Shown here piece by piece: positions 5,385-46,279 of a stretch of 64,000 bases of DNA. The position numbers were made by a program, and so were the translations under genes. Within the stretch, counting starts at the first letter, position 1. Each line of letters begins with the position of its first letter. The notes beneath the pieces are model-generated. The model did not search any database. It was not told where the DNA came from and was given only the letters and a program-made list of their open reading frames with translations. The stretch is from Candidatus Bathyarchaeota archaeon (GTDB lineage Archaea > Thermoproteota > Bathyarchaeia > 40CM-2-53-6). Location of the stretch: positions 133,859 to 197,858 of the forward strand of contig VBAW01000016.1 of assembly GCA_005888635.1 (NCBI GenBank). Direction: 5' to 3'.

Positions 5385-7211
5385 TTGTGTGGAATATTCG
5401 GCTGCGTTCTTCACGAGGGTTCCCAGGCGGCCCCAATTGTCCATTCCGCGCTCAAACGCCTCGAATACAGGGGCTACGATTCAGTGGGCGAAGTAACCGT
5501 CGATAATGACCGATTGACTGTGAAGAAGGATAGCGGACGATTGGAGGAGGTCCACGCAAAATACAATCTTGACGACCTTCCGGGACCAGTTGGCGTCGGA
5601 CACACAAGATGGGCGACCCATGGAAGACCCGTGTACGAAAACTCTCACCCGCTCGTGGATTGCAAGTCGCGGATCGCCGTGGTTCACAATGGAATTATCG
5701 AGAATTATCTAGAAATCAAGAGAGAACTGGAAGGGAAAGGCCACAGGTTCCAGTCGAGAACCGACACCGAAGTCGTCCCGCACTTGGTGGAAGACTATCA
5801 CTCTCACGGGATGAGTCTAGAAGAGGCGTTCCGCAAGACTGTGAACCGTCTTGAAGGAGCTTACGCGATCGTTCTCACTAGTGCAGAACAGCCGAAGACA
5901 ATACTCTGCGCCCGTCAAGAGAGCCCTCTCGTCTTGGGTCTCGGAGACGGTGAATATTACTGCGCCTCAGATTTCGCAGCATTCTTACCGCTCACCCGGA
6001 AGGCGGTGCTTCTTGACGAGGGAGAAATGGCGGTTCTAGATCCCAAGGGGATGAAGATTCTCAAACTGAAGAATGCCGCTCCGGTAAGACGAGAAGCCAT
6101 TACCATCACTTGGGACCCGGAGTCTGCAAAGAAGCAAGGCTTCCGGCATTTTATGCTTAAAGAAATACACGAACAAGCACAAGCCCTGCGTGACGCCCTC
6201 CGAACGGAGCAAGTATACTACGATCAATTCTCCCGCAAGATCATTGAAGCTGACAAAGTCTTCATCGTAGCTTGTGGGACTTCATATCATGCTGGGCTCG
6301 TCGGCAGCATAGCCCTGGCCAAGATAGCAGGGATCAACGCTCGAGCAGTGATTGCCAGCGAGCTCTCTGAGGAAGCTCTGGATCTAGTAACTTCGAAGAC
6401 CGTCATTCTAGCTATCAGCCAGTCTGGTGAGACGATGGACACTCTCAACGCAGTGCGTGACGCAAAGGCAAAGGGCGCGACGATTCTGAGTGTCCTGAAC
6501 GTGTTGGGCTCCACTCTGATGCGGCTGTCCACCGTCTACATTGACCAGAACGCAGGACCAGAGATAGGAGTGGCCTCAACCAAGGCCTTCACCAGCCAGA
6601 TCGCGGTACTTCTTCGACTCGCTGCAACCATTGGCCGGAAGAAGGGCGAAGTGTCTGCGAAAGAGATTAGCGAGCTAGAAAACGCGCTCCACAAAACCCC
6701 CGCTCTCATCCAGAGCATTCTGAACACTAAGATCGAAGATGTCAAGAAAATAGCGCAGGAATGCGACACCGCATCAAGTGTCTGTTTCTTGGGACGGGGA
6801 ATCAATGTCCCGACTGCTCTCGAAGGTCGTCTCAAACTCTTGGAACTCAGCTACGTCCCAGCGATTGCTTATCCGGCTGGTGAGAGCAAACATGGATTCA
6901 TCGCACTCATCGAAGAAGGATTTCCAGTAATCTTCGTCGCACCTAATGACGACACCCACAAACGGATTGTCGGAAACATTATGGAGATGAAGGCTCGTGG
7001 TGCCCGGATCATTTCAATAATTGAGGAAGGAGATGAAGAGGTCAGAAACCTCTCCGATCGGGTCATTGAAATTTCAGAGTCTCTGCCCTCCCTGGTAACT
7101 CCCCTCGTGTATGTGGTACCATTGCAGCTGCTAGCATACTATCTATCCGTGATCAAAGGGCACGACCCTGACTATCCCCGCAATCTGGCCAAGAGCGTCA
7201 CTGTCGAATAG
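5385..7211 (+). CDS. glmS: glutamine--fructose-6-phosphate aminotransferase (isomerising)
   Basis: 608 aa with MCGIFG Ntn-amidotransferase start, two SIS domains and a C-terminal ...VTVE motif. Confidence 0.95.
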   Translation: MCGIFGCVLHEGSQAAPIVHSALKRLEYRGYDSVGEVTVDNDRLTVKKDSGRLEEVHAKYNLDDLPGPVGVGHTRWATHGRPVYENSHPLVDCKSRIAVVHNGIIENYLEIKRELEGKGHRFQSRTDTEVVPHLVEDYHSHGMSLEEAFRKTVNRLEGAYAIVLTSAEQPKTILCARQESPLVLGLGDGEYYCASDFAAFLPLTRKAVLLDEGEMAVLDPKGMKILKLKNAAPVRREAITITWDPESAKKQGFRHFMLKEIHEQAQALRDALRTEQVYYDQFSRKIIEADKVFIVACGTSYHAGLVGSIALAKIAGINARAVIASELSEEALDLVTSKTVILAISQSGETMDTLNAVRDAKAKGATILSVLNVLGSTLMRLSTVYIDQNAGPEIGVASTKAFTSQIAVLLRLAATIGRKKGEVSAKEISELENALHKTPALIQSILNTKIEDVKKIAQECDTASSVCFLGRGINVPTALEGRLKLLELSYVPAIAYPAGESKHGFIALIEEGFPVIFVAPNDDTHKRIVGNIMEMKARGARIISIIEEGDEEVRNLSDRVIEISESLPSLVTPLVYVVPLQLLAYYLSVIKGHDPDYPRNLAKSVTVE

Positions 7212-30031: not shown

Positions 30032-31165
30032 TTAGTCTTCTTCTGATGGAAACTTCTTCTTCGAAGCTTCGGAAGACTTGACACCGTCCTTACTGTCCAT
30101 CCCGTCTGAGCTCTTATCATCCGATTTGAATTGACTCTTCTCAGAATTCTCTTGGGTTGTTGCAGTATCCTCAGGAGTTGATGGTTTAGCTAGACTTGGA
30201 CTGATTGAAAGATCTAGGCGCGGTTTAGTTGCTTCAGAGCCTGATCGGGGACTTGCGCTAGGCACTGGATTCCTGGGAAAATTGGTCGGGCGAGGCGGTC
30301 TGGGGAGAGCCTTGGGGACCAAGGGGTTGGTCATTGGCCCGACGATAACGCTTGGCGGGACTATTTTCGGCGCAGGTGCTGGGATGTAGGGCTGTCTCAG
30401 TCCGCCGGAGTCGGAGACTGATGGCACCTTTCTAGTGGGAGATGAAGGCCTGAGGATTCCCCGGGATTCTCCTATGAATTTGGGGCTGTCTTCCCAGCTG
30501 GAACCGCCTTGATTCGGTGGCGCAGGCATAGTTGGTCTGTCGAATGCTCTCTCGGAAATGACTGTCTGTGGCGGTGGCCTTTCAGCTCCTTTCTCAGTTA
30601 TCATCATTGGTTTCATAAGAGCGGGCGTGCTTGTTGGCAGGGCTTCGATCCTCGGTGGAGGAACTCCTGTCTCGCGACCGAAGGGAACATCGTCGCGGTT
30701 TGCTCCCGTGGATCTTGCGCTCATTGGCGGGCCAGCCTCTAGCGGTGTTCGAAACGCTTTCTCCCACGATCCTGGACGGGGTTCGGTCTGACTGGGAGCA
30801 ACGGTTGGAGTTGTTGCAATCACGGGGGCTGGGTGAACTTTTTCGATTTTCAGCTCAGCGACCTGGGCCTCAAGTACGAGGTTACGTTTCATCAGATTCT
30901 CTAGCATCTGCAATGCTCTTTCTAGTCGAATACCTGGGCGCAGTCCTCTCTGGAACTTGAAGGCTAGGGTGATGGCGAGTGTCGCGATTATGACCATAAC
31001 AGCAATGTCGATAGTACTGAACGATAGCTGTGGGAATCTCTGCAGACTGCCGGCCAATTGGTCTGCGACAGAGGGGTTATTGGCGTAGACTAGGAACAAC
31101 CAGTATGAGAGCCAGCCTACGAACGCGGTCTCTATAGCAACGAGCTTGATAAGGAGTCTTCTCAA
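30032..31165 (-). CDS. membrane-anchored coiled-coil / proline-rich protein (paralogue 1)
   Basis: 377 aa with an N-terminal two-TM anchor (WLSYWLFLVYANNP...IAVMVIIATLAITLAF), a short coiled coil, then a Pro/Ser-rich low-complexity tail. Confidence 0.6.
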   Translation of the reverse strand: MRRLLIKLVAIETAFVGWLSYWLFLVYANNPSVADQLAGSLQRFPQLSFSTIDIAVMVIIATLAITLAFKFQRGLRPGIRLERALQMLENLMKRNLVLEAQVAELKIEKVHPAPVIATTPTVAPSQTEPRPGSWEKAFRTPLEAGPPMSARSTGANRDDVPFGRETGVPPPRIEALPTSTPALMKPMMITEKGAERPPPQTVISERAFDRPTMPAPPNQGGSSWEDSPKFIGESRGILRPSSPTRKVPSVSDSGGLRQPYIPAPAPKIVPPSVIVGPMTNPLVPKALPRPPRPTNFPRNPVPSASPRSGSEATKPRLDLSISPSLAKPSTPEDTATTQENSEKSQFKSDDKSSDGMDSKDGVKSSEASKKKFPSEED

Positions 31166-31258
31166 ACTATCCTTCTCTCCTCCTTGGGAGCAACAAGTGG
31201 AACTCTGCTTGGTAAGAGCCTAAGACTTGCTGTAACTGGCTCAGATGGGTCAAAGTCC

Positions 31259-32641
31259 CTATTTTGCCTCTCCGACTCCTCGATCTTTCCGCAAAGTCTT
31301 CAATATCGTATCTAAGGCGGTGTCCCAATCCATCTCTCCTCCGCCCCCAGTCGCTGCTGGAGGGTTCTTCGATTCGGCCCCCGGGTTTGTCGAGGACAGG
31401 TCACCGAATGATTGGGGTTTCTCTGAGGAGTCGGGTGATTCTTTGTCTGGGGTCTGGGTAGGTGGCTTCCAGGGCTGAGGCATTGGCATTGGTCCTCCAA
31501 GAGGAGGAGGTGGTCGAGGTCCGGGTTGACCTTGTCCAGGTTGGGGTCCCATTCCGGGTGGGGGTCGGGGTGGACCTGCACCGAATGGTCTTGGGGGTGC
31601 CATAGGTGGTGCCATAGGTCGTTGTTCTCCGGGTCTTCCCGGACCTTGTGTGACGAAGGGGCGGGGTCCACCCTGTGTAGGGGGTAGCGGGGGTCTCATG
31701 GGCATGGGGGCAGGTCGAGGAATTCCTTGGGGTGGCGGGGAGCCCTGTGGATATGTGGATCCTGATGATGGGGTCCATTTGGTCGGGAGTGGCGGGATAG
31801 ATCTTACTCCAGAGGTCTCGGAAGACGGCGCGATCCGCGGCCGGTCTGGAGGAGCCCACTTTGACGGGACTGCTGAGGACTGTGAACTTTGAGGCTGACC
31901 TGCGGGGGAGGGGAACGGGACGCCTTGTCTTGCTGATGTGTCAAGTCCCGGTTTCTGGAATACAGGCCCTGTCTCTGATCTCCGATTGTCCATGGTCGAC
32001 GGAGGGGCATTCCAAGCCGGGCTTGGTCCGGGTCTAGGCGACTGCTCGGTTGGTGGGCGGATTGTCGAACTGGGTGGATTCTGGGGGGTAGGTTGGAAAG
32101 GCGAGGAAGTAGGTCTCGACGCTTCAGCTCGCAAGGTCTGTAATACCGCGGAGGCACTCTTTCCCGCTACGTCCTGTTTCTGGGCCGGGAACGTATCGGT
32201 CGAGGACTTGGCAGCTGTTGACCATGTCAGGCTCGGGCTGGCTCTTGGACTGCTCGGGCTAGAACTCTTTGGTAATGGTGGAACCGCGTAGACTGTATGC
32301 TTTGACCCGGTGGAAGGCGGAGCGCCTGTGGGGAGGATCTGTCTCGAGGGCGAGGCGGTCGGAGTGCCTGTTGAGAGTATTGATCCTGGTTTGAACGATT
32401 TTGATTTCTGAATTCTTCCGACGAGGCCTTGGTCACCGTGCCGTCTCTTGAGGAGCACGTATCCAAAACCGGATCCTCCACCTAGGCCGATCGTTAGAAC
32501 TATGAACGGTGAATAGGGTCCGATTGAGGTGTTAACGTAGTTCTGGAAATAGATATCGTTCAGATACTGGTTGACGAGCCAGAAGGTGAGGAATAGGTTG
32601 ACGAGGATAGAGATGGTTGTTCCGATTCGTATTTTGACCAC
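31259..32641 (-). CDS. membrane-anchored proline-rich protein (paralogue 2)
   Basis: 460 aa with a related two-TM anchor (FWLVNQYLNDIYFQNYVNTSIGPYSPFIVLTIGLG), then a roughly 380-aa Pro/Gly/Ser-rich tail containing a 12-nt tandem duplication (PMAPPMAPP). Confidence 0.6.
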   Translation of the reverse strand: MVKIRIGTTISILVNLFLTFWLVNQYLNDIYFQNYVNTSIGPYSPFIVLTIGLGGGSGFGYVLLKRRHGDQGLVGRIQKSKSFKPGSILSTGTPTASPSRQILPTGAPPSTGSKHTVYAVPPLPKSSSPSSPRASPSLTWSTAAKSSTDTFPAQKQDVAGKSASAVLQTLRAEASRPTSSPFQPTPQNPPSSTIRPPTEQSPRPGPSPAWNAPPSTMDNRRSETGPVFQKPGLDTSARQGVPFPSPAGQPQSSQSSAVPSKWAPPDRPRIAPSSETSGVRSIPPLPTKWTPSSGSTYPQGSPPPQGIPRPAPMPMRPPLPPTQGGPRPFVTQGPGRPGEQRPMAPPMAPPRPFGAGPPRPPPGMGPQPGQGQPGPRPPPPLGGPMPMPQPWKPPTQTPDKESPDSSEKPQSFGDLSSTNPGAESKNPPAATGGGGEMDWDTALDTILKTLRKDRGVGEAK

Positions 32642-38703: not shown

Positions 38704-39531
38704 TTGTTCTTTGTAGAACGCTTAAACTGGTCACCCTTTCTCAGAAGTCTGAGTTTGACAGCCTCAATTCAGGAGGGTGATCTGGTTTTCCTCTATCAAG
38801 ACGCTCGCCGTAACTGGATTGCTCGGGCGGGAGAGGGACGATTCCATACTCACCGAGGGTATCTTGATCTCAAGGATCTTGTCGGGTTAGAGTACGGGGT
38901 CTTCGTCAAAACTAGCCTGGGACAGTCGCTTGCGGTGTTCAAGCCTCGGCTCTTGGAGCTGGTGAACTCGTTCAACAGACCTACCCAGATAATGTATCCA
39001 AAGGACATCGGGTATGCGATCTATCAGCTTGGACTGAAAGACGGCGATACTGCGATTGAAGTGGGCACAGGTAGCGGTGCCCTCACCGGTGCGTTGGCTC
39101 AGGCGGTCGCGCCGAATGGCCGGGTGTACACTTACGAGAACCGGGAGGAGTTCTTGAGGTCGGCTAAGAAGAACGTGGAAAAGACTGGGCTATCAAGTAA
39201 GGTCATTTTTCGAAACATGGACCCATCGGAGGGATTCTTGGAGTTGAATGCAGACGCTGCTGTTATCGATCTCGGTGATCCTTGGAAGATGGTGGGCCCA
39301 GCATGGGAAGCCCTGGCAGGAGGAGGGATGCTGGCAGGCTTCACGCCCACCGTTAACCAATTAGAGAAACTTGCTGAAGCGCTGAGAAAGGGCGGATTTC
39401 TCGTACTTGAAGCGGTTGAGCTCTTGATGCGAGAGTTCAAGACCGAAACAGGGAAGATACGACCCGAGTCGCGAATGATCGGACACACCGCATATGTGAC
39501 GATCGCTCGAAAGGTCATTGTGAAAGAATAA
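38704..39531 (+). CDS. trmI: tRNA (adenine-N1)-methyltransferase TrmI/Gcd14 family
   Basis: 275 aa with IEVGTGSGALTGALAQAV SAM motif and a Gcd14-like N-terminal domain. Confidence 0.8.
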   Translation: MFFVERLNWSPFLRSLSLTASIQEGDLVFLYQDARRNWIARAGEGRFHTHRGYLDLKDLVGLEYGVFVKTSLGQSLAVFKPRLLELVNSFNRPTQIMYPKDIGYAIYQLGLKDGDTAIEVGTGSGALTGALAQAVAPNGRVYTYENREEFLRSAKKNVEKTGLSSKVIFRNMDPSEGFLELNADAAVIDLGDPWKMVGPAWEALAGGGMLAGFTPTVNQLEKLAEALRKGGFLVLEAVELLMREFKTETGKIRPESRMIGHTAYVTIARKVIVKE

Positions 39532-39602
39532 GCGTTCTTACCCCCAACTTATCATTCGGATATCAAGAACTCATTTATTCATACTCACATCTATGTCAAT
39601 CC

Positions 39603-40612
39603 ATGGCTACCTCCAGCCCTCTCCCTCCCATCCGACAAAAAGAAATCGAAGCCTTCCTACAAGCAAATCCACTCGTTCGCCAATGGCTAACCAAATGGAA
39701 ACCAATAACACGAAAACTATACGCAATTGACATAATCAGATTCCAGCAACTATCAAACACGCAAATCGAACAACTCCTCGTCCGTCTAGAAAATAATCAA
39801 ATCAAGCCACGCGAAATACGCTCACTAATCGAAACATCACTTGCCGACCTCACCAACTCCGTACAAGCAAGAATGGACTCAGCAGTGAGAGGATTCTTCA
39901 AACATCACCACGGCAAACTACCTGATACAACCATAAAATACCTAAAAATCCGCGATTATAGAGCGTACCACAAAGACGAACTTCAAGCCTTAATCGGCTT
40001 TCTCGACAAGCCCCCTAGAAGAACTATTCGCGATTATCGCTACAGAGCGGATTGAGAGGAGGAACTGTCCTCCAACCAAAATGGCGTCATATCGAGCAAG
40101 ACTTCAACAACCGAGCGGGCCCGATAGCAATCAGACTCGAAAACTCGTTTCAGGTAGGTCGCAAGAAATCCGGATTCACCTTCATAGGAGACCGAGCAAG
40201 ACAACTAATCAGACGCTCCACCGAGACAAATAAGTCCGAGAGAGGCTACAGAATATACACAGAATCCGATCGCAACATCTTCCCATATTCATATGACTCA
40301 GTACTGACAATAATCAAAACGGCAAAAGACAAAGCTCAGCTACACGATCCGGCTTTAAGCCCGATACACTCATTCCGAAAATTCTTCCGCGAACAACTAA
40401 CCAACGCTGAAATCCACCCCGACCACATCAAAGTCCTTTTCGCCAGATTCGACGACACCGACGCGAAAGAATACACTTCCAAGGAATTCGAGACCCTCAG
40501 ACCAGAGTACGAGCACGCATACGCATACCTGGATTACATGAACAACGCACCCGACACAAGCGCCAACTATCAACCAAACAGACAGAGCAACAAGATATCA
40601 TCAACATACTAA
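39603..40612 (+). pseudogene. tyrosine recombinase/integrase split by a frameshift at about 40052
   Basis: N-terminal 150-aa core-binding-like ORF (39603..40055) and C-terminal 186-aa catalytic ORF (40052..40612) carrying HSFRKFFREQL (HxxR box) and a C-terminal Tyr region (EHAYAYLDY). The two frames differ by +1 at the junction. Confidence 0.65.
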
Positions 40613-40662
40613 GCCAAAGGCTCCAAAACCTCGAAACCGCACTCGCACAACGCCCAAACGAC

Positions 40663-40842
40663 ATGCTCATCCAAACAGTCAACGAATTACTCGACCAAGC
40701 GACACCCCAACAAAGATTCCAATTCTACGAAAAAATCATGGCAAGCCTCTCGACAGAACCAACCTATTCAAAAATCATGCAATTCACCAAACCGCCAACA
40801 ATGATGAGACCGCGAGAAAACAACCCGAACCCTATCGGATGA
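40663..40842 (+). CDS. possible small ORF downstream of integrase
   Basis: 59-aa ORF (MLIQTVNELLDQATPQQRFQFYEKIM...) below the size cutoff. Could instead be noncoding. Confidence 0.2.
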   Translation: MLIQTVNELLDQATPQQRFQFYEKIMASLSTEPTYSKIMQFTKPPTMMRPRENNPNPIG

Positions 40843-41010
40843 CACCCTTTTGACAACAAAATGGTTTCAAACTTCCGAACCTTGGACAACTAAAGCCCAA
40901 AACGCCGGGAACCGTCACACGTTCACACTAATGCAGTTTCGCCCAACAACTACGTAGAATCCCAACCTTTTTCTTCGCTAACTCTCCGAGTGAAACTGGA
41001 GATTTAGACC

Positions 41011-41259
41011 ATGACCGGGTGGTTATCCAAGATCTTCAAGGACAAGAAGGGTTACAAGCGCTTTGCTGACTCGGGAACACCTGTCCATCGTTACGTCGCC
41101 GAAAGGAAATATGGTCGTAAGTTGAAGAACCGAGAAGTGGTTCATCACAAAAACAGAATCAAGACGGACAACCGAAGAAACAATCTCTCGGTATTTTCCT
41201 CGCAGAAGAAGCATCATGCAGTTCACCGCCGCGACAAGAAGCGGTTTGGTAGATGGTGA
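41011..41259 (+). CDS. HNH endonuclease
   Basis: 82 aa: HRYVAERKYGRKLKNREVVHHKNRIKTDNRRNNL...HHAVH, a classic HNH motif. Confidence 0.65.
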   Translation: MTGWLSKIFKDKKGYKRFADSGTPVHRYVAERKYGRKLKNREVVHHKNRIKTDNRRNNLSVFSSQKKHHAVHRRDKKRFGRW

Positions 41260-41575
41260 CTGCTCCATCTCCCACGGGTGCTTGGCCAATGACGACAAAC
41301 AGCAGACGAGCGGAACCTCAATCAACTCCCGATTCGGAGCTTCAAAACACTCAGCTCAAACACCATCCTCAACAACAACGGACTTGACGATTCGAGTATT
41401 TCCACAGGACGGACACACGTAACCTAAGCCTTCAAGTTCATGTTCTTGCCACTTGAAAGTCCAGAACGCGTTATTGACATCCGGAAGATGAGGAATGTGT
41501 ACCTCGGATACTCTAGAGCCCAGCGATGTCTTGATGTCCTGCGTCAGCTCGCTAGGGTGACTGGCTGATCGTGAG

Positions 41576-42304
41576 TTGACGAGGAAGGATCCTAGACAGG
41601 CCCTTCCGGGGTTCGATGTTTATGCGGAGCTGAAACCAATAGCTCCACTCTGGCAATGGTTCCTCGCAGGGTTGCTATTGGTGATCTTTTCACCACCAAT
41701 TTTGTGGTTCGGTAACTTTCCATCGGAGCCTGTGCAGATTCTGATTCTGGCCCTGTTCCTTCTAGGGTGCGCCTTTCTCACCGCGCTATACGTACGTCGA
41801 AAGTGGATTCCCATAGGAATCAGACCGGAAGGGAAAGGAGTGTTGGTTGTCGGGAAAACAATCTCTGAGAATCTTAGTCCTGCTTCTAGAGTCAATTTCG
41901 ACGACGGAGCCATGATCTATTTGGAAAAGCCCGGTGCTCGTCTTCAACTTCGGAAGATGGAAATTAGATTCTCGTCTCGGGAAGACGCGAAACGCGTCGT
42001 TGATTGGTTGGAACGGGGCGTTGGTTCTACTAGTCTTGACAGACGCTCGGGGGTAAGATCAGAGATCTGGGCTCTGGTCTCTAATGGCCCGTATCTCAAG
42101 AGGTCTCGGATAGAGTTCGAGCGGGGCATCTGCTTTGTCGTGGATCCTGGAATGAACATTTTCGAGGTGATTCCGAAACGTGTTCGACGCAAGGACGAGG
42201 TTACTTTGGTAGCGTCTACAGGTTTCTGGCACTATGGAGACGTCGTGATGAAGTTCGACTCGTCAGTCGATGCAAATAGGATCGAACAGCAGTTGAACAC
42301 CTGA
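41576..42304 (+). CDS. hypothetical membrane protein
   Basis: 242 aa with 2 N-terminal TM helices and a soluble C-terminal domain. Confidence 0.45.
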   Translation: MTRKDPRQALPGFDVYAELKPIAPLWQWFLAGLLLVIFSPPILWFGNFPSEPVQILILALFLLGCAFLTALYVRRKWIPIGIRPEGKGVLVVGKTISENLSPASRVNFDDGAMIYLEKPGARLQLRKMEIRFSSREDAKRVVDWLERGVGSTSLDRRSGVRSEIWALVSNGPYLKRSRIEFERGICFVVDPGMNIFEVIPKRVRRKDEVTLVASTGFWHYGDVVMKFDSSVDANRIEQQLNT

Positions 42305-42323
42305 GAGGGGCCCAAGCCTCAGT

Positions 42324-42728
42324 TCAAACGCTGCGCACCGCTCTAGGTCTCAAGCACCACGTTTTGATGGTCCACAATCCTAGAATTGACAGGTACAACA
42401 AGCCGACCACAACAAAAGGGGGCCACCAAGAAGATGCCGGACTGATTAGACCCATCCCAACACCAAGGACGGTTGACAGTCCAAACGCTGTGATTCCCAT
42501 CAGTCGAGCGCCGGACCAACGAGCAATGATAGCCACGCAAAAAATCAGAATCAGTACTCCATCAATAAGAAACCCTGCTGAGAGAAACCCTGCCTTCCCA
42601 CCCTTCCCAAGTAAACTAGCCGTCAGCCCAAAAGTGAACCCAAGGCCCAAGTGCGCCAAGCCCCATATAACAGAAAATATTCCCGCGGCGAATTTGGCTA
42701 ACTTCACCGCGAGCAGACTAGATTCCAT
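42324..42728 (-). CDS. hypothetical membrane protein
   Basis: 134 aa with 4 TM helices. Confidence 0.45.
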   Translation of the reverse strand: MESSLLAVKLAKFAAGIFSVIWGLAHLGLGFTFGLTASLLGKGGKAGFLSAGFLIDGVLILIFCVAIIARWSGARLMGITAFGLSTVLGVGMGLISPASSWWPPFVVVGLLYLSILGLWTIKTWCLRPRAVRSV

Positions 42729-42927
42729 CTTTAGCCAGCACGCAGAACGTATTGTTATTACCTCAATCTGTGATTAGAGCTTTTCTCAAAATCACATTCC
42801 CAGCAAAAGCTGGCAATACCCAATGCGGAGACCTCTTTAGCCATAACAGATCATCGCTGACGCGCTATAATCCAAGAGACCGGAGAACGGTCTCCGCTAT
42901 CACTTCTTAACCTCAAAGGAGGAAGCT

Positions 42928-43416
42928 ATGAAGAAATGCACCATTTCCCTTAGCGATAACCGTATTACCGTCATAGAACGCTATAACTCCAGAGGAGACT
43001 TACGGTTGAAAAAATGTCAGCGTTGCGGAACCATATCCCAAGACGCAGATGTCGTATGCGGGATCTGCGGCACCAATATTGCGAATACTCCTTCGCTAGA
43101 GGATAGCATCGAAGAAGAAATACTCAAAGACCAAAAGTTGAGGGAAGAAGAAAGCAGACGTATCCGGCAAAAGATTCCCAGAGAATCTACGCGCGAACTT
43201 ATGCGAAGGCTCTTACCTTCACTTCTCGCTCTTGCAATCGGCTTTACCCTTTTACTCTACAGATTATCCCAGGCCCTCGCAATGGGGGGAAACTCGGATC
43301 TCCAACCCATTCCTTACCGCGTTTACGCGCAAAACATTTTCCCTAAAACAGAAACCAAAAGAACATCACAATTACATCAAATCACCATGCGCTTGCAAGC
43401 GCCTAATCCTTATTAG
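42928..43416 (+). CDS. zinc-ribbon plus TM protein
   Basis: 162 aa with CQRCGT...CGICG ribbon, a charged helix and one TM. GGAGG 8 nt upstream of the ATG. Confidence 0.55.
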   Translation: MKKCTISLSDNRITVIERYNSRGDLRLKKCQRCGTISQDADVVCGICGTNIANTPSLEDSIEEEILKDQKLREEESRRIRQKIPRESTRELMRRLLPSLLALAIGFTLLLYRLSQALAMGGNSDLQPIPYRVYAQNIFPKTETKRTSQLHQITMRLQAPNPY

Positions 43417-43424
43417 ACTAGAAT

Positions 43425-43826
43425 GTGAAAGTCGTTATTGTGCTTCGCGTAGCTTTGGTTGTTTTAGTTGTTTTCTCCATGATTGCTACAGTGTTTGCAC
43501 AGCCACCCAGTCTCAGGAATTGGACGATCCCATTCACAGGTTCCATTGATGTGCGACTCCACGCTCAAACACCCACTCCGCTCCGGGGCACGTCGTTCAG
43601 CATGATAATCAGTGGTAACATACCATACAAGTCACTATACGAGAATAGCCTCAATATCACTATAAACCGCCAAAACTTTGTTATCTACCAAACCGACCAG
43701 TGCTGCTACGAGGGAATCAATATGCTTTCAAACCTCAACATAACCGCGTCAATGGTCTTTCACGTATCGACAACAGTGCCTTGGAACGGCTCCTTTGTCT
43801 TTCATGCTTGGGTAGAACCATTTTAG
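43425..43826 (+). CDS. secreted hypothetical protein
   Basis: 133 aa with an N-terminal signal peptide (VVLVVFSMIATVFAQP). Asn/Thr-rich. Confidence 0.5.
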   Translation: MKVVIVLRVALVVLVVFSMIATVFAQPPSLRNWTIPFTGSIDVRLHAQTPTPLRGTSFSMIISGNIPYKSLYENSLNITINRQNFVIYQTDQCCYEGINMLSNLNITASMVFHVSTTVPWNGSFVFHAWVEPF

Positions 43827-44418
43827 GCACCAATCCAAGAGACAAAAAACGAAATAACGAATAAAGAATACAACATCAAAGAACGACAGAACAATAGCCT
43901 ACCGCAAACAATCACTACGTTCAAGACACCGCTAATGCTCAAAACACACACATACCAAACCGCTCAACAGAGTTATCACGGTCAACCGCTCGTACCCCTC
44001 GCTATCAACAGAACAGGATCATCAGACAGAAACCTATCAAAACGCAGAACACAGATAACCATGCCTCGTACCTCGGCACTCACGACCATAGGATCACTGC
44101 TCGGGTACCTCGCTCTCCGTAGTCAACTACACAGAGAAACCGATAGGAAGCCATGCAGACAGACCCAAAACGCAGAACGCGTCACACACCCGATACCAGA
44201 TCACCTAGACAAGCACCGCGTCGGAGACAACCGGCGGCGCAATCTGTAATCACTATCAAGAGAAGCTGGGGCGGCCCCAGAGCCCCCGATGACAGAGCAC
44301 GATTCAGGCACGCTAGCGAAGGCGCGATGCAAGAAGCTCAAAAGACCATGAAGACCGGTCATCATGCCCTCAAGGTCATCGGTCTTGACTCTTACCACAA
44401 ATAGAGGGGATTACGAAA

Positions 44419-45024
44419 TTACAGGGGTTTCCCGCATTTCCCGCAATAGATCGCATCCTCATTCTCAAGGTAGCCGCAGTTGCGGCATTTCACTTTGACA
44501 ACGGATTCACTCCTAAGCGGGTTTCCTCCAAATCCTATCCTCAAGCCCTCGCCAGCGGCCTCTGAGACACGCTCAATCGCGGGTGATGCCTCAGACGCTA
44601 CATACGTAGTCACTGGCCTAATCATCCCAAGTCTAAGTGCTCCGAATCCAAGTGCTAAGAGAACCATCCCGATTATTGCCGTGACGAACGATGAATTCAT
44701 CTGGGCTTCCCTTGCTGCGAAGTCAAACTGGTTTGACGTAGGCGTCATCACTGACGTTGCCGCCACTAGGAAGAGGACTAGCCCTATGACAACCATTATT
44801 GCCCCAATGGCCGTCAGTGATCCGCGACCCAAGCCGAATAGTGACCCGTCATCACTACCCATTCGAATCACTGGGAATAACGAGCGAAAGCATGAATTAA
44901 GTCTGTCCGACAGAAGGAACGCTTTATTACGCTTACTTGGTAGCCAGATACTACTACGGGAAGCACTGACCGCCTGACGCGCGCTCGCGCTCCTTCGTCG
45001 CGCTACGCCACAAGCAGCCAACAC
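44419..45024 (-). CDS. membrane protein with C-terminal zinc ribbon (likely starts near 44859)
   Basis: TM helices plus KCRNCGYLENEDAIYCGKCGKPL. Confidence 0.45.
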   Translation of the reverse strand: MLAACGVARRRSASARQAVSASRSSIWLPSKRNKAFLLSDRLNSCFRSLFPVIRMGSDDGSLFGLGRGSLTAIGAIMVVIGLVLFLVAATSVMTPTSNQFDFAAREAQMNSSFVTAIIGMVLLALGFGALRLGMIRPVTTYVASEASPAIERVSEAAGEGLRIGFGGNPLRSESVVKVKCRNCGYLENEDAIYCGKCGKPL

Positions 45025-45246
45025 TGGTTTTCACGCTGGAATCTTTCCGACGCAACAGAAAACCCAGAGGCAGACTACGACATCTTGCTATCAGCAAGCA
45101 TCAAAAAACAGTTCGAACAACTCCAGCCATTACTCACCATACAACACTTAGCCCAACAAGAATCGCAGATACCGACAGTATCAATACTCACACGACGAAA
45201 CTTCACCCTGCAAACAACACAGAATACATCATCACCAAGATAACGC

Positions 45247-45849
45247 CTAACCATAACCAGACACCTCAATCAAAGACTGAAACAGCAAGACACCCTTCCA
45301 GGAAGCAAGACCACCAACATACCCGAACAGCTTCAACAACCGACGAAAAACACGACTCTCGCCTACAAAGATCCAATGCCGAGAGGCAGATCCGCGAACG
45401 TAGCCAGACTGACTACTCATGTACTGAGTAACCAGGTAACGCGAGATACCGCCAATACCGCCCTTCCTATCCTCAACACGAGTAATCCAGCCCTCAAACG
45501 CACCATGAATCTCATACCAAGCATGGCGAATCCAAGCGATTGGAATGAAGCACCCACGATACAACAGGTGAAGGACACCATGTCCCTCAGAGGATCGAAC
45601 GTAGCAATACTCAAACTTCCCAAACATTCGACGAATGCGCTTAACAAGAATCTGCAAAGATTTCTGAACCACTCGTGGAGACCTTGGACTCGAAGTCAAA
45701 GTCAAGAAACGCAGATCAGCACCAACACCACGACCAATCGTTAAGCCAGACAAAGCGCGACGATAACCACGGCGCTGCTTCACAGACCACCAACCAGAAA
45801 CAAGAGAGCGGAAACTGCGCTCACGAATACACGACTGGCATGACTCCAC
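45247..45849 (-). CDS. hypothetical protein (weak replication-initiator-like FLTLT motif)
   Basis: 200-aa Arg/Gly-rich ORF containing RFLTLTSS. A competing ORF exists on the opposite strand, so the coding strand is uncertain. Confidence 0.3.
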   Translation of the reverse strand: MESCQSCIRERSFRSLVSGWWSVKQRRGYRRALSGLTIGRGVGADLRFLTLTSSPRSPRVVQKSLQILVKRIRRMFGKFEYCYVRSSEGHGVLHLLYRGCFIPIAWIRHAWYEIHGAFEGWITRVEDRKGGIGGISRYLVTQYMSSQSGYVRGSASRHWIFVGESRVFRRLLKLFGYVGGLASWKGVLLFQSLIEVSGYG

Positions 45850-46042
45850 ACTACTGACAGAATGCCTACAGAATCGACTTACGGAGACTCGGCAATCATT
45901 GCCCCATCAGTCCTCGCTGGTAACAATACGATCCCGTTCCAGCGATTTACAGTTGGCTCGTTTTCTTATCTGGAACAAATCAATCGCATAAGCGTTCATA
46001 TATGGGAAAGAGCTTGAGCTGTTCGTCACGGGTAGCGTCGCA

Positions 46043-46279
46043 ATGAGTGCTGTTCGCGTTGGAGACTCCGATCTAACAAAGATACTACGCGGAGTCGCAG
46101 TCATAGTGGCCGCGGCGCTGATGATTCTTCCAGCATATTTCAACTATGAGATCTGGAAGACAGGATTCAACCCGGTTGTGTCAATGGCAATTAGCCTGCA
46201 ACTGTTTGCTATTGGAATCGTCATCTTCATTCTCGCAGTGGGCAAAGAGCGACTGGCTCCAAAGTCTCAACCTCAGTAA
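46043..46279 (+). CDS. small membrane protein
   Basis: 78 aa with 2 TM helices. Confidence 0.35.
   Translation: MSAVRVGDSDLTKILRGVAVIVAAALMILPAYFNYEIWKTGFNPVVSMAISLQLFAIGIVIFILAVGKERLAPKSQPQ

Follow-up and report, generated by a model that had tools for sequence, protein, structure and literature searches.

The island behind trmI and its integrase

The 64,000-nucleotide stretch of contig VBAW01000016.1 analysed here (assembly GCA_005888635.1, 'Candidatus Bathyarchaeota archaeon'; referred to below as the window) contains an island of 6.46 kb (39538–45997) directly after the 3′ end of the host gene trmI, which encodes tRNA m1A58 methyltransferase. An inactivated tyrosine integrase gene (int) lies at the left end of the island and an intact gene for a predicted rolling-circle replication initiator (rep) at the right end. 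Between them are genes for an HNH endonuclease and for membrane and zinc-ribbon proteins, as well as two candidate replication origins (Table 1).

The island differs from its host in strand composition. Top-strand A+C amounts to 0.595 over the whole island and to 0.62–0.685 in its backbone segments; in 223 host windows of 1 kb it is 0.489 ± 0.037, with a maximum of 0.573. At 39.5–41.2 and 42.25–46.0 kb, the GC skew of the top strand is −0.1 to −0.37 and the AT skew +0.2 to +0.44. The switch sets in directly behind the trmI stop, and host-like values return near 46.0 kb; the stretch at 41.0–42.3 kb and the gene at 44.4–45.0 kb are host-like. The original prediction, made from the sequence alone, had described an A/C-rich top strand between these same points, and A+C and skew computed per window bear it out.

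The boundaries are marked by a 10-bp direct repeat, ATAAGCGTTC, which occurs in the window only at the two positions given in Table 1 (expected number, 0.08). The TAA stop codon of trmI (39529–39531) sits within the left copy, so TrmI is unaltered by integration. Scanned against species-representative genomes, the window TrmI points to a soil bathyarchaeon as the host. Two relatives have an empty site: the closest, the 'Ca. Bathyarchaeota BA_7' metagenome-assembled genome (MAG; L003), whose TrmI is 98% identical to that of the window, and the more distant L006. In both, window position 39540 is joined straight to 45988, with a 13-bp stretch common to both flank alignments (blastn). In a multiple alignment, the empty site reads GTGAAAGA-ATAAGCGTTC-ATATATGGG, that is, the left arm of attL, a single core and the right arm of attR. 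Since the empty sites hold one core between both outer arms, 39538–45997 is an insertion and the repeat is its attachment (att) core. The repeat had been proposed as an att core overlapping the trmI stop, in a protein-gene 3′ end used as the attachment site, and the single-copy empty sites uphold both proposals. An ancestral chromosomal order had been named as what would speak against insertion; the empty sites in relatives favour insertion. No tRNA gene is present anywhere in the window, in keeping with the earlier remark that no tRNA target was evident. The attB junction is GTGAAAGAATAAGCGTTCATATATGGG; the attP junction of the predicted circle would be CAATCGCATAAGCGTTCTTACCCCC, written ...CAATCGC-ATAAGCGTTC-TTACCCC....

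The integrase gene is a pseudogene. In tblastn, the 444-aa Phage_integrase protein of a related element, L001, aligns to three different frames of the window, whereas four copies of the element that likewise occupy the trmI site (L084, L091, L093, L094) have an uninterrupted integrase of about 412 aa. Compared with these intact copies, the window has an extra C (+1) in the C-run at 40011–15, a 2-bp loss at about 40043 (ACAGAGAGC to ACAGAGC) and a 1-bp loss at about 40559. The earlier call of a tyrosine recombinase thus stands; the single +1 frameshift it had placed at 40052 does not, being replaced by three indels. Because the intact gene ran to 40842, a separate 59-aa open reading frame (ORF) is the C-terminal coiled-coil part of the integrase. 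Against PF00589 (cut-off 27.1 bits), the score is 33.3 bits for an intact sister copy, 48.8 bits for the L001 homologue and 16.5 bits for the window fragments alone; the match ends at residue 295, which is profile position 169 of 172. Candidate catalytic residues, placed by position and not by structural alignment, are R152 (SGLRGG), K188/189, H256xxR259 and Y291. The integrase clade is small, with 14 clusters, all metagenomic.

The ratio of nonsynonymous to synonymous substitution rates (dN/dS) between the window fragments and the intact copies is 0.08–0.26, which argues that inactivation was recent. The host flank aligns to L003 across 10 kb almost without gaps, suggesting that the three indels are real mutations and not assembly noise. 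With three frameshifting indels in its integrase, the window copy is unable to excise by itself.

Table 1. Coordinates of the island features and flanking host genes in the window.
Feature	Position	Strand	Basis or remark
Host trmI (tRNA m1A58 methyltransferase)	38704..39531	+	Pfam GCD14 E = 2.2e-34; TrmI-like_N
attL	39528..39540	+	Core ATAAGCGTTC 39528–39537, extended by nTA
Second CTTGATA	39561..39567	-	24 bp inside attL; ~186 nt upstream of rep once circular
Tyrosine integrase pseudogene (int)	39603..40842	+	Three frames: 39603–40010, ~40019–40558, 40561–40842
HNH endonuclease, 82 aa	41011..41259	+	Pfam HNH_3 E = 2.5e-10; PHROG HNH down to E = 7.5e-13
Membrane-anchored protein, 242 aa	41576..42304	+	Window copy only; third-position A+C 0.43, host-like
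Hydrophobic multi-pass membrane protein, 134 aa	42324..42728	-	89% conserved in L084; dN/dS 0.26
Structured non-coding element, ~110 nt, long and short hairpin	42790..42915	-	Conservation, covariation
CxxC...CxxC zinc ribbon with one transmembrane segment, 162 aa	42928..43416	+	GGAGG ahead of start
Variable cargo, hydrophobic N-terminus, 133 aa	43425..43826	+	ORF list
Non-coding replication region	43963..44299	-	80–94% conserved in L084, L091, L097, L099, L104
Candidate double-strand origin	44254..44280	-	Hairpin CTGGGGCcgGCCCCAG 44266–44280, then CTTCT, then CTTGATA 44254–44260
ORF of 201 aa (probably ~146 aa from an internal Met)	44419..45024	-	Two transmembrane segments, C-terminal zinc ribbon
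Cys-rich ORF (CxxC...CxxC), 64 aa	45075..45269	-	Overlaps rep 3′ end; L001 homologue 1920–2177
Predicted rolling-circle replication initiator Rep, 200 aa, intact	45247..45849	-	Homologues, PF23343 relatives, AlphaFold2, dN/dS
attR	45988..46000	+	Core ATAAGCGTTC 45988–45997, extended by nTA
Host membrane protein, 78 aa, right flank	46043..46279	+	Adjoins trmI in empty sites L003, L006

Replication initiator, strand asymmetry and candidate origins

Rep has 15 close homologues, and a profile search retrieved 2255 cluster representatives at E ≤ 1e-3; the clusters of Rep relatives carry no annotation of their source. The window protein scores 13.1 bits (E = 0.12) against PF23343 (REP_ORF2-G2P; cut-off 27.8), and the family is matched by 35 of 80 aligned Rep relatives, with a best E of 8e-19; Rep is thus a putative member of PF23343 by transitive homology. 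A few other relatives match RepSA, Phage_GPA or Helitron_like_N, all of which are HUH initiators. Rep is also 38% identical to the Rep of plasmids pRKU1/pRQ7 over about 155 aa (E = 1e-21; tblastn, PLSDB). Near-invariant residues in the family are T50-L51-T52 (motif 1, FLTLTSSP), H94, H115, Y138 and Y143, the two tyrosines lying on a predicted helix, 131–143 (motif 3). The FLTLT motif had reminded the original prediction of rolling-circle initiators, and the homologues, the PF23343 relatives and the pRKU1 match confirm the likeness.

An AlphaFold2 model built on an 80-sequence alignment has a predicted local distance difference test score (pLDDT) of 91.2 and a predicted template modelling score of 0.85; its beta-alpha-beta-beta-alpha-beta core leads into the Tyr helix. 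An earlier model from nine sequences had a pLDDT of 58, and its fold search was uninformative. The top PDB matches in Foldseek are SIRV1 ORF119 Rep, AAV2 Rep, pMV158 RepB, geminivirus and circovirus Reps, parvovirus NS1, RAYT and IS200 TnpA. The BFVD viral fold library gave 161 matches at E ≤ 1e-3, those with names being Microvirus replication initiators and proteins with an ORF2/G2P domain. The Rep profile had no match among PDB sequences. The model thus predicts an HUH fold similar to that of Microviridae Reps, and the protein is best explained as an initiator of the HUH superfamily, akin to those of phiX174 (gpA), pC194 and pRQ7.

The dN/dS of the rep frame is 0.15–0.23. An antisense ORF (45376–45744, plus strand) was rejected as a gene; its dN/dS is 0.7–1.55, and it is explained by the scarcity of stop codons on the A/C-rich strand. 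Some contigs of about 1.4–1.6 kb (L119, L130), which are read as circles because of their terminal k-mer repeats, have a distant Rep as their only ORF of notable size, and one distant Rep is found on a 3.7-kb circle (L146/L147, contigs of 3.85 kb), which has several unassigned ORFs besides. L119 (1640 bp), L130 (1489 bp), L132 and L146/L147 are candidate minimal rolling-circle plasmids. The contig name of L119 gives a coverage of 345x; L128, another Rep contig of the same assembly, has 5x.

The composition of the island follows the DNA strand. Top-strand A+C is 0.64–0.67 in int, which is encoded on the top strand, and equally in rep and the 134-aa gene, which are encoded on the bottom strand. 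At third codon positions, int has an A+C of 0.77–0.80 on its coding (top) strand and rep a G+T of 0.77 on its coding (bottom) strand, while host genes on either strand have an A+C of 0.45–0.60. In sister elements, rep-sense G+T reaches 0.63 (L001), 0.69 (L002) and 0.70 (L097), against 0.49–0.52 in the flanks. The asymmetry is strongest at third positions, and its sign on the DNA strand does not change between int and rep despite their opposed orientation: the A/C-rich top strand reflects a strand-wide mutational asymmetry tied to rolling-circle replication, not generic foreign composition. The G+T-rich strand is the one that bears the nick motif and is predicted to be displaced as single-stranded DNA (ssDNA). 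Depletion of C and A is expected from deamination of cytosine and adenine in ssDNA, as for the mitochondrial heavy strand, and we infer that deamination of the displaced strand produced the G+T richness.

The candidate double-strand origin lies in a region of 340 bp whose indels are not multiples of three, which marks the region as non-coding; for the same reason, the ORFs in 43830–44420 were rejected as genes. The origin block on the minus strand comprises a CTGGGGC-GCCCCAG hairpin and then CTTCT-CTTGATA-GTGATTACAGATTGCGCC; a hairpin followed by CTTCTCTTGATAG is a motif of the kind known from pC194 and phiX174. Nicking is predicted at CTTG/ATA, between positions 44257 and 44256. A 60-bp block (44235–44292) shows 90% identity to L001 and L100, against only about 74% for the nucleotide sequence of their rep, and the hairpin covaries (CTGGGG/CCCCAG versus TCGGGG/CCCCGA). 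Rep-sense CTTGATA is present no more than 250 nt upstream of Rep at 18 of 47 distant loci (expected 0.77; antisense, one), where the extended consensus is CTTCACTTGATA[AG], mostly directly behind a GC-rich hairpin. Plasmid pRKU1 has gttcaCTTGATAgta behind the hairpin CCCCGGGTGTA...TACACCCGGGG. Both pC194 and phiX174 are nicked between the G and the A of CTTGATA-type motifs. The pC194 origin reads TTCTTATCTTGATAATA (PMC7072734). The conservation, the hairpin covariation, the enrichment of the motif near Reps and the agreement with pRKU1 and pC194 make 44254–44280 a candidate double-strand origin. The loop of the window hairpin (CTGGGGCGGCCCCAG) is 2 nt shorter than in all sister copies (CTGGGGC-GCG/TAC/TGC-GCCCCAG), which may weaken the origin in this integrase-dead copy.

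The second CTTGATA is kept in all trmI-site copies (L084, L091, L085), where neither a hairpin nor a CTTC prefix accompanies it. Once circular, the element would have it where distant relatives have their origin; it may be the remnant of an origin or a site of termination.

The structured element is 85–91% conserved among elements whose Reps are only 50–80% identical, and it is retained even where the adjacent gene is absent. Seven pairs show compensatory changes, compared with 2.9 ± 1.1 in shuffles and 0–1 in slid controls. Folded as DNA, the rep-sense strand reaches −20.1 kcal/mol (z = −3.4) and the other strand −16.3 kcal/mol, the former being stabler because of several G:T pairs. Rfam had no match in the island, this element included. 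It is a candidate single-strand origin, with a small RNA as an alternative.

Sister copies, relics and variable genes

The same element with an intact integrase occupies the trmI site on independent metagenome contigs (L084, L091, L093, L094). In all, the site is occupied in L084 and L091–L095 and in relics. The relic form, found in L004, L005, L085, L088, L096 and L102, is what deletion has left, 2.4 kb in length; it keeps rep and the 201-aa gene and has lost int, the HNH gene and most cargo. Several samples contain it; in L003, the closest relative of the window, the site is empty.

Another core, TAGCTCTTAAnCGG, bounds a second group of elements (L001, L002, L089, L090, L097–L100, L103, L104), which sit between the genes for an AAA kinase and LigT. 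The integrase of this group (e.g., in L097, L100 and L001) shares about 45% identity with that of the trmI site; as a different core goes with a different integrase, integration is site-specific and not transposition. The Reps of L089 and L090 are 91–93% identical to the window Rep, yet these elements lie at the TAGCTCTTAAnCGG site, which indicates that rep and int modules are exchanged between elements. L002, at about 3.6 kb the smallest element, contains little besides rep and int. In L001, a perfect 110-bp tandem duplication (6260–6479) extends over the LigT start directly outside the att core; this may be a genuine duplication at the site of integration or an artefact of the assembly.

Some records with TrmI and flanks resembling those of Bathyarchaeia stand under bacterial MAG names (L005, L023, L031, L053, L065–L068), the names concerned being Dormiibacterota, Methylomirabilota, Chloroflexia and Acidiferrales. 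In L005, TrmI is 95% and the nucleotide sequence 84–94% identical to the window, and its bacterial placement is probably a case of mis-binning. The Methylomirabilota, Chloroflexia and Acidiferrales records with about 42–46% identity may be genuine bacterial TrmI homologues.

Among the cargo genes, the HNH gene is kept in L084, L091–L095 and L104 with a dN/dS of 0.06–0.23; its Pfam match substantiates the earlier HNH call. The N-terminal 119 aa of the 162-aa protein are 91–96% conserved in sister copies; its dN/dS is about 0.5 and its zinc-ribbon Pfam matches are weak (best E = 7.6e-4). The 64-aa Cys-rich ORF is under purifying selection (dN/dS 0.25–0.48), and its product may be a Rep accessory protein or a regulatory zinc finger. 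Other parts are variable. The segment 41273–42300 is missing from L084 and L091–L094, and 43285–43977 is replaced there by other sequence. The relic copies have the indel 44290–44977, which L084, L091–L094 and L001 lack. The 201-aa gene has weak zinc-ribbon matches and host-like third positions; with their host-like third positions and their absence from sister copies, it and the 242-aa gene are later acquisitions.

No family match was found for the 242-aa, 134-aa, 133-aa and 64-aa proteins, and PHROGs, NCBIfam and PADLOC returned only the HNH and weak zinc-ribbon matches for the cargo. The cargo ORFs had been called unrecognisable; this does not hold throughout, Rep being related to the pRQ7/pRKU1 Rep.

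Elsewhere in the window, the minus strand at 30032–32641 encodes two long proteins (377 and 460 aa) that are rich in Pro/Ser, of low complexity and hydrophobic in segments near the N-terminus. The top strand is strongly G/T-rich at 30–32.6 kb, with a GC skew of up to +0.30, and its A+C of 0.383 is the extreme window of the host. This region was rejected as a second element, its skew being a coding effect of the Pro/Ser-rich proteins encoded there on the minus strand.

Nature of the element and comparison with known systems

The island is quite likely a cryptic integrative rolling-circle plasmid of a soil bathyarchaeon that can no longer excise from the window locus. Its free form would be circular and about 6.4 kb long, with rep and int diverging from a region of about 210 bp that holds attP. 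The tyrosine integrase would have joined attP to the end of trmI by recombination at the 10-bp core that both have in common, regenerating the stop codon. Rep would bind the hairpin at 44266–44280 and nick CTTG/ATA on the rep-sense strand; a host polymerase would extend the 3′-OH, displacing the rep-sense strand as ssDNA, on which the structured element at 42790–42915 may prime synthesis of the complementary strand. Repeated exposure of one strand as ssDNA would lead to C-to-T and A-to-G deamination and thus to G+T richness. In the window copy, rep, the origin and both att cores are intact.

Several points weigh against this reading. We infer rolling-circle replication of the free form from sequence, and nicking, ssDNA intermediates and priming along with it. 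Motif 2 of Rep reads V-L-H in the window and in most family members, where the canonical motif is HUH; of the two His, H94, the second, alone is invariant, and H115 is a candidate replacement ligand. The tyrosines are spaced i/i+5 and not the canonical i/i+4, and even the best PDB fold match is weak (E = 1.5e-3). In the clade of the window, the CTTGATA origin is situated downstream of rep, at a distance of about 1 kb; in the distant relatives and pRKU1 it is upstream. The G:T pairs that confer strand specificity on the structured element could merely mirror the G+T richness of its strand. As regards the circular form, the attP 22-mer had no match in IMG/VR.

A provirus or integrative plasmid, possibly degenerate, had been the original proposal, of which the degenerate integrative plasmid holds. 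The provirus would be that of a small pleomorphic or unconventional virus, possibly with ssDNA, using the same int, rep and origin and having the membrane and zinc-ribbon proteins as virion parts; we regard it as unlikely. The several small membrane or secreted proteins would suit it, as would the closeness of Microviridae Reps among the viral-library fold matches and a G+T of up to 0.70 (L002, L097), against 0.52 in pRKU1, which fits a long stay as packaged ssDNA. Pfam, PHROGs and NCBIfam scans of the island proteins, however, revealed no capsid, spike, packaging or morphogenesis protein. The suggested comparison with virus and plasmid databases succeeded on the plasmid side, through the PLSDB match to the pRKU1/pRQ7 Rep, and not on the viral side: IMG/VR, searched with the Rep profile, contained no relatives, and the GenBank phages, searched with the island and Rep, gave no match. 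The membrane-protein genes, moreover, are not family-wide and L002 is essentially rep and int, so the conserved core consists of replication and integration only. That the elements are the integrated form of new archaeal ssDNA viruses or virus satellites, with a pleomorphic, capsid-less particle built of the variable small membrane and zinc-ribbon proteins, is a doubtful and improbable extension of the provirus idea; if true, the packaged single strand would explain a G+T skew far above that of pRKU1.

A rolling-circle transposon of IS91 or Helitron type, with Rep as the transposase, the 10-bp repeat derived from the target and the integrase as a passenger, is very improbable. Each integrase type is found at one identical site and core, a second type going with a second core, and the integrase is under purifying selection. 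The two conserved Rep tyrosines do recall Y2 HUH transposases, one family member weakly matches Helitron_like_N, and the second CTTGATA lies 24 bp inside attL; the right end, however, has no CTTGATA-like terminus, and Rep relatives are the sole sizeable ORF on apparent circles of about 1.4–1.6 kb and on the 846-bp pRKU1. Least credible of all is a non-mobile origin, in which ancestral chromosome was deleted in relatives between chance 10-bp repeats or plasmid and chromosome were joined in a chimeric assembly. The source is probably a metagenome assembly and 10-bp repeats are able to mediate deletions, but the same junctions recur in independent assemblies of different samples (L084, L091, L093, L094), the boundaries fall exactly at a sharp compositional switch, integrase and Rep sit at opposite ends and a related element occupies another site with its own core.

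The integrative plasmid so favoured has its nearest experimentally studied counterparts in the 846-bp Thermotoga miniplasmids pRQ7, pRKU1 and pMC24, of which pRQ7 is reported as rolling-circle replicating (PMC3398313, citing Yu & Noll 1997). Their Rep is homologous, with FLTLTSS, an EIH motif and the Tyr helix in common, and they have TTCACTTGATAG behind a GC-rich hairpin. Unlike the island, they are bacterial, non-integrative and encode only Rep; their origin is upstream of or within the 5′ end of rep, their motif 2 is a true HMH, and pRKU1 has no marked G+T skew (0.52). The pC194, phiX174-gpA and Microviridae initiators have in common with the island the CTTGATA nick core with a CTT(N)T/C prefix and two Tyr on one helix, and Microvirus replication initiators are the best structural matches of the window Rep in the viral library. 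The window Rep is much smaller than these and lacks the first HUH His; apart from one weak match, the Rep family has no significant sequence match to Rep_1 or Phage_GPA. The Streptomyces element pSAM2 likewise combines a tyrosine integrase with a rolling-circle initiator, RepSA, and Pfam RepSA is weakly matched by five members of the Rep family. It is a bacterial, conjugative element that integrates into a tRNA gene. It is also much larger than the island.

In archaea, cryptic integrated elements of Thaumarchaeota, 14 of 68 of which lie in protein-gene 3′ ends, have been described by comparing empty and occupied sites (PMC6563490). They are likewise small, with a tyrosine integrase and short att sites, and one of them, NitAQ6f-E2, has a rolling-circle Rep of the SNJ1 type (PMC6563490). 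They differ in host phylum and integrase clade, and no strand asymmetry or origin is described in that study. The SNJ2-type betapleolipoviruses (PMC13107129) are integrated archaeal elements with a rolling-circle Rep (Rep-Arvir), a hairpin origin downstream of rep and terminal regions that are adjacent only once circular. SNJ2, however, encodes virion proteins, and circularisation there restores an operon, whereas rep and int of the island are divergent. Rep-Arvir was rejected as the family of the window Rep, since its fold is of the Rep_trans/TBP-like type and not HUH (PMC13107129). A full-text literature search on Bathyarchaeia combined with rolling-circle and integrase found no paper.

Bathyarchaeia are abundant, mostly uncultured archaea. 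The island is a new example of an element of a known type, in a group for which a survey of Bathyarchaeia viruses reports no rolling-circle element (PMC10848311). Together with its sister copies, it defines a minimal replicon consisting of a 200-aa Rep, a candidate double-strand origin, a candidate single-strand origin, an integrase and two att specificities, a list of the parts that shuttle or integration vectors need. More than 2,000 cluster representatives of an uncharacterised Rep family are now linked, across the divide between bacteria and archaea, to the experimentally studied pRQ7. The locus also offers an unusually clean natural case in which a mutational skew of the replication strand prevails over the composition of the coding strand.

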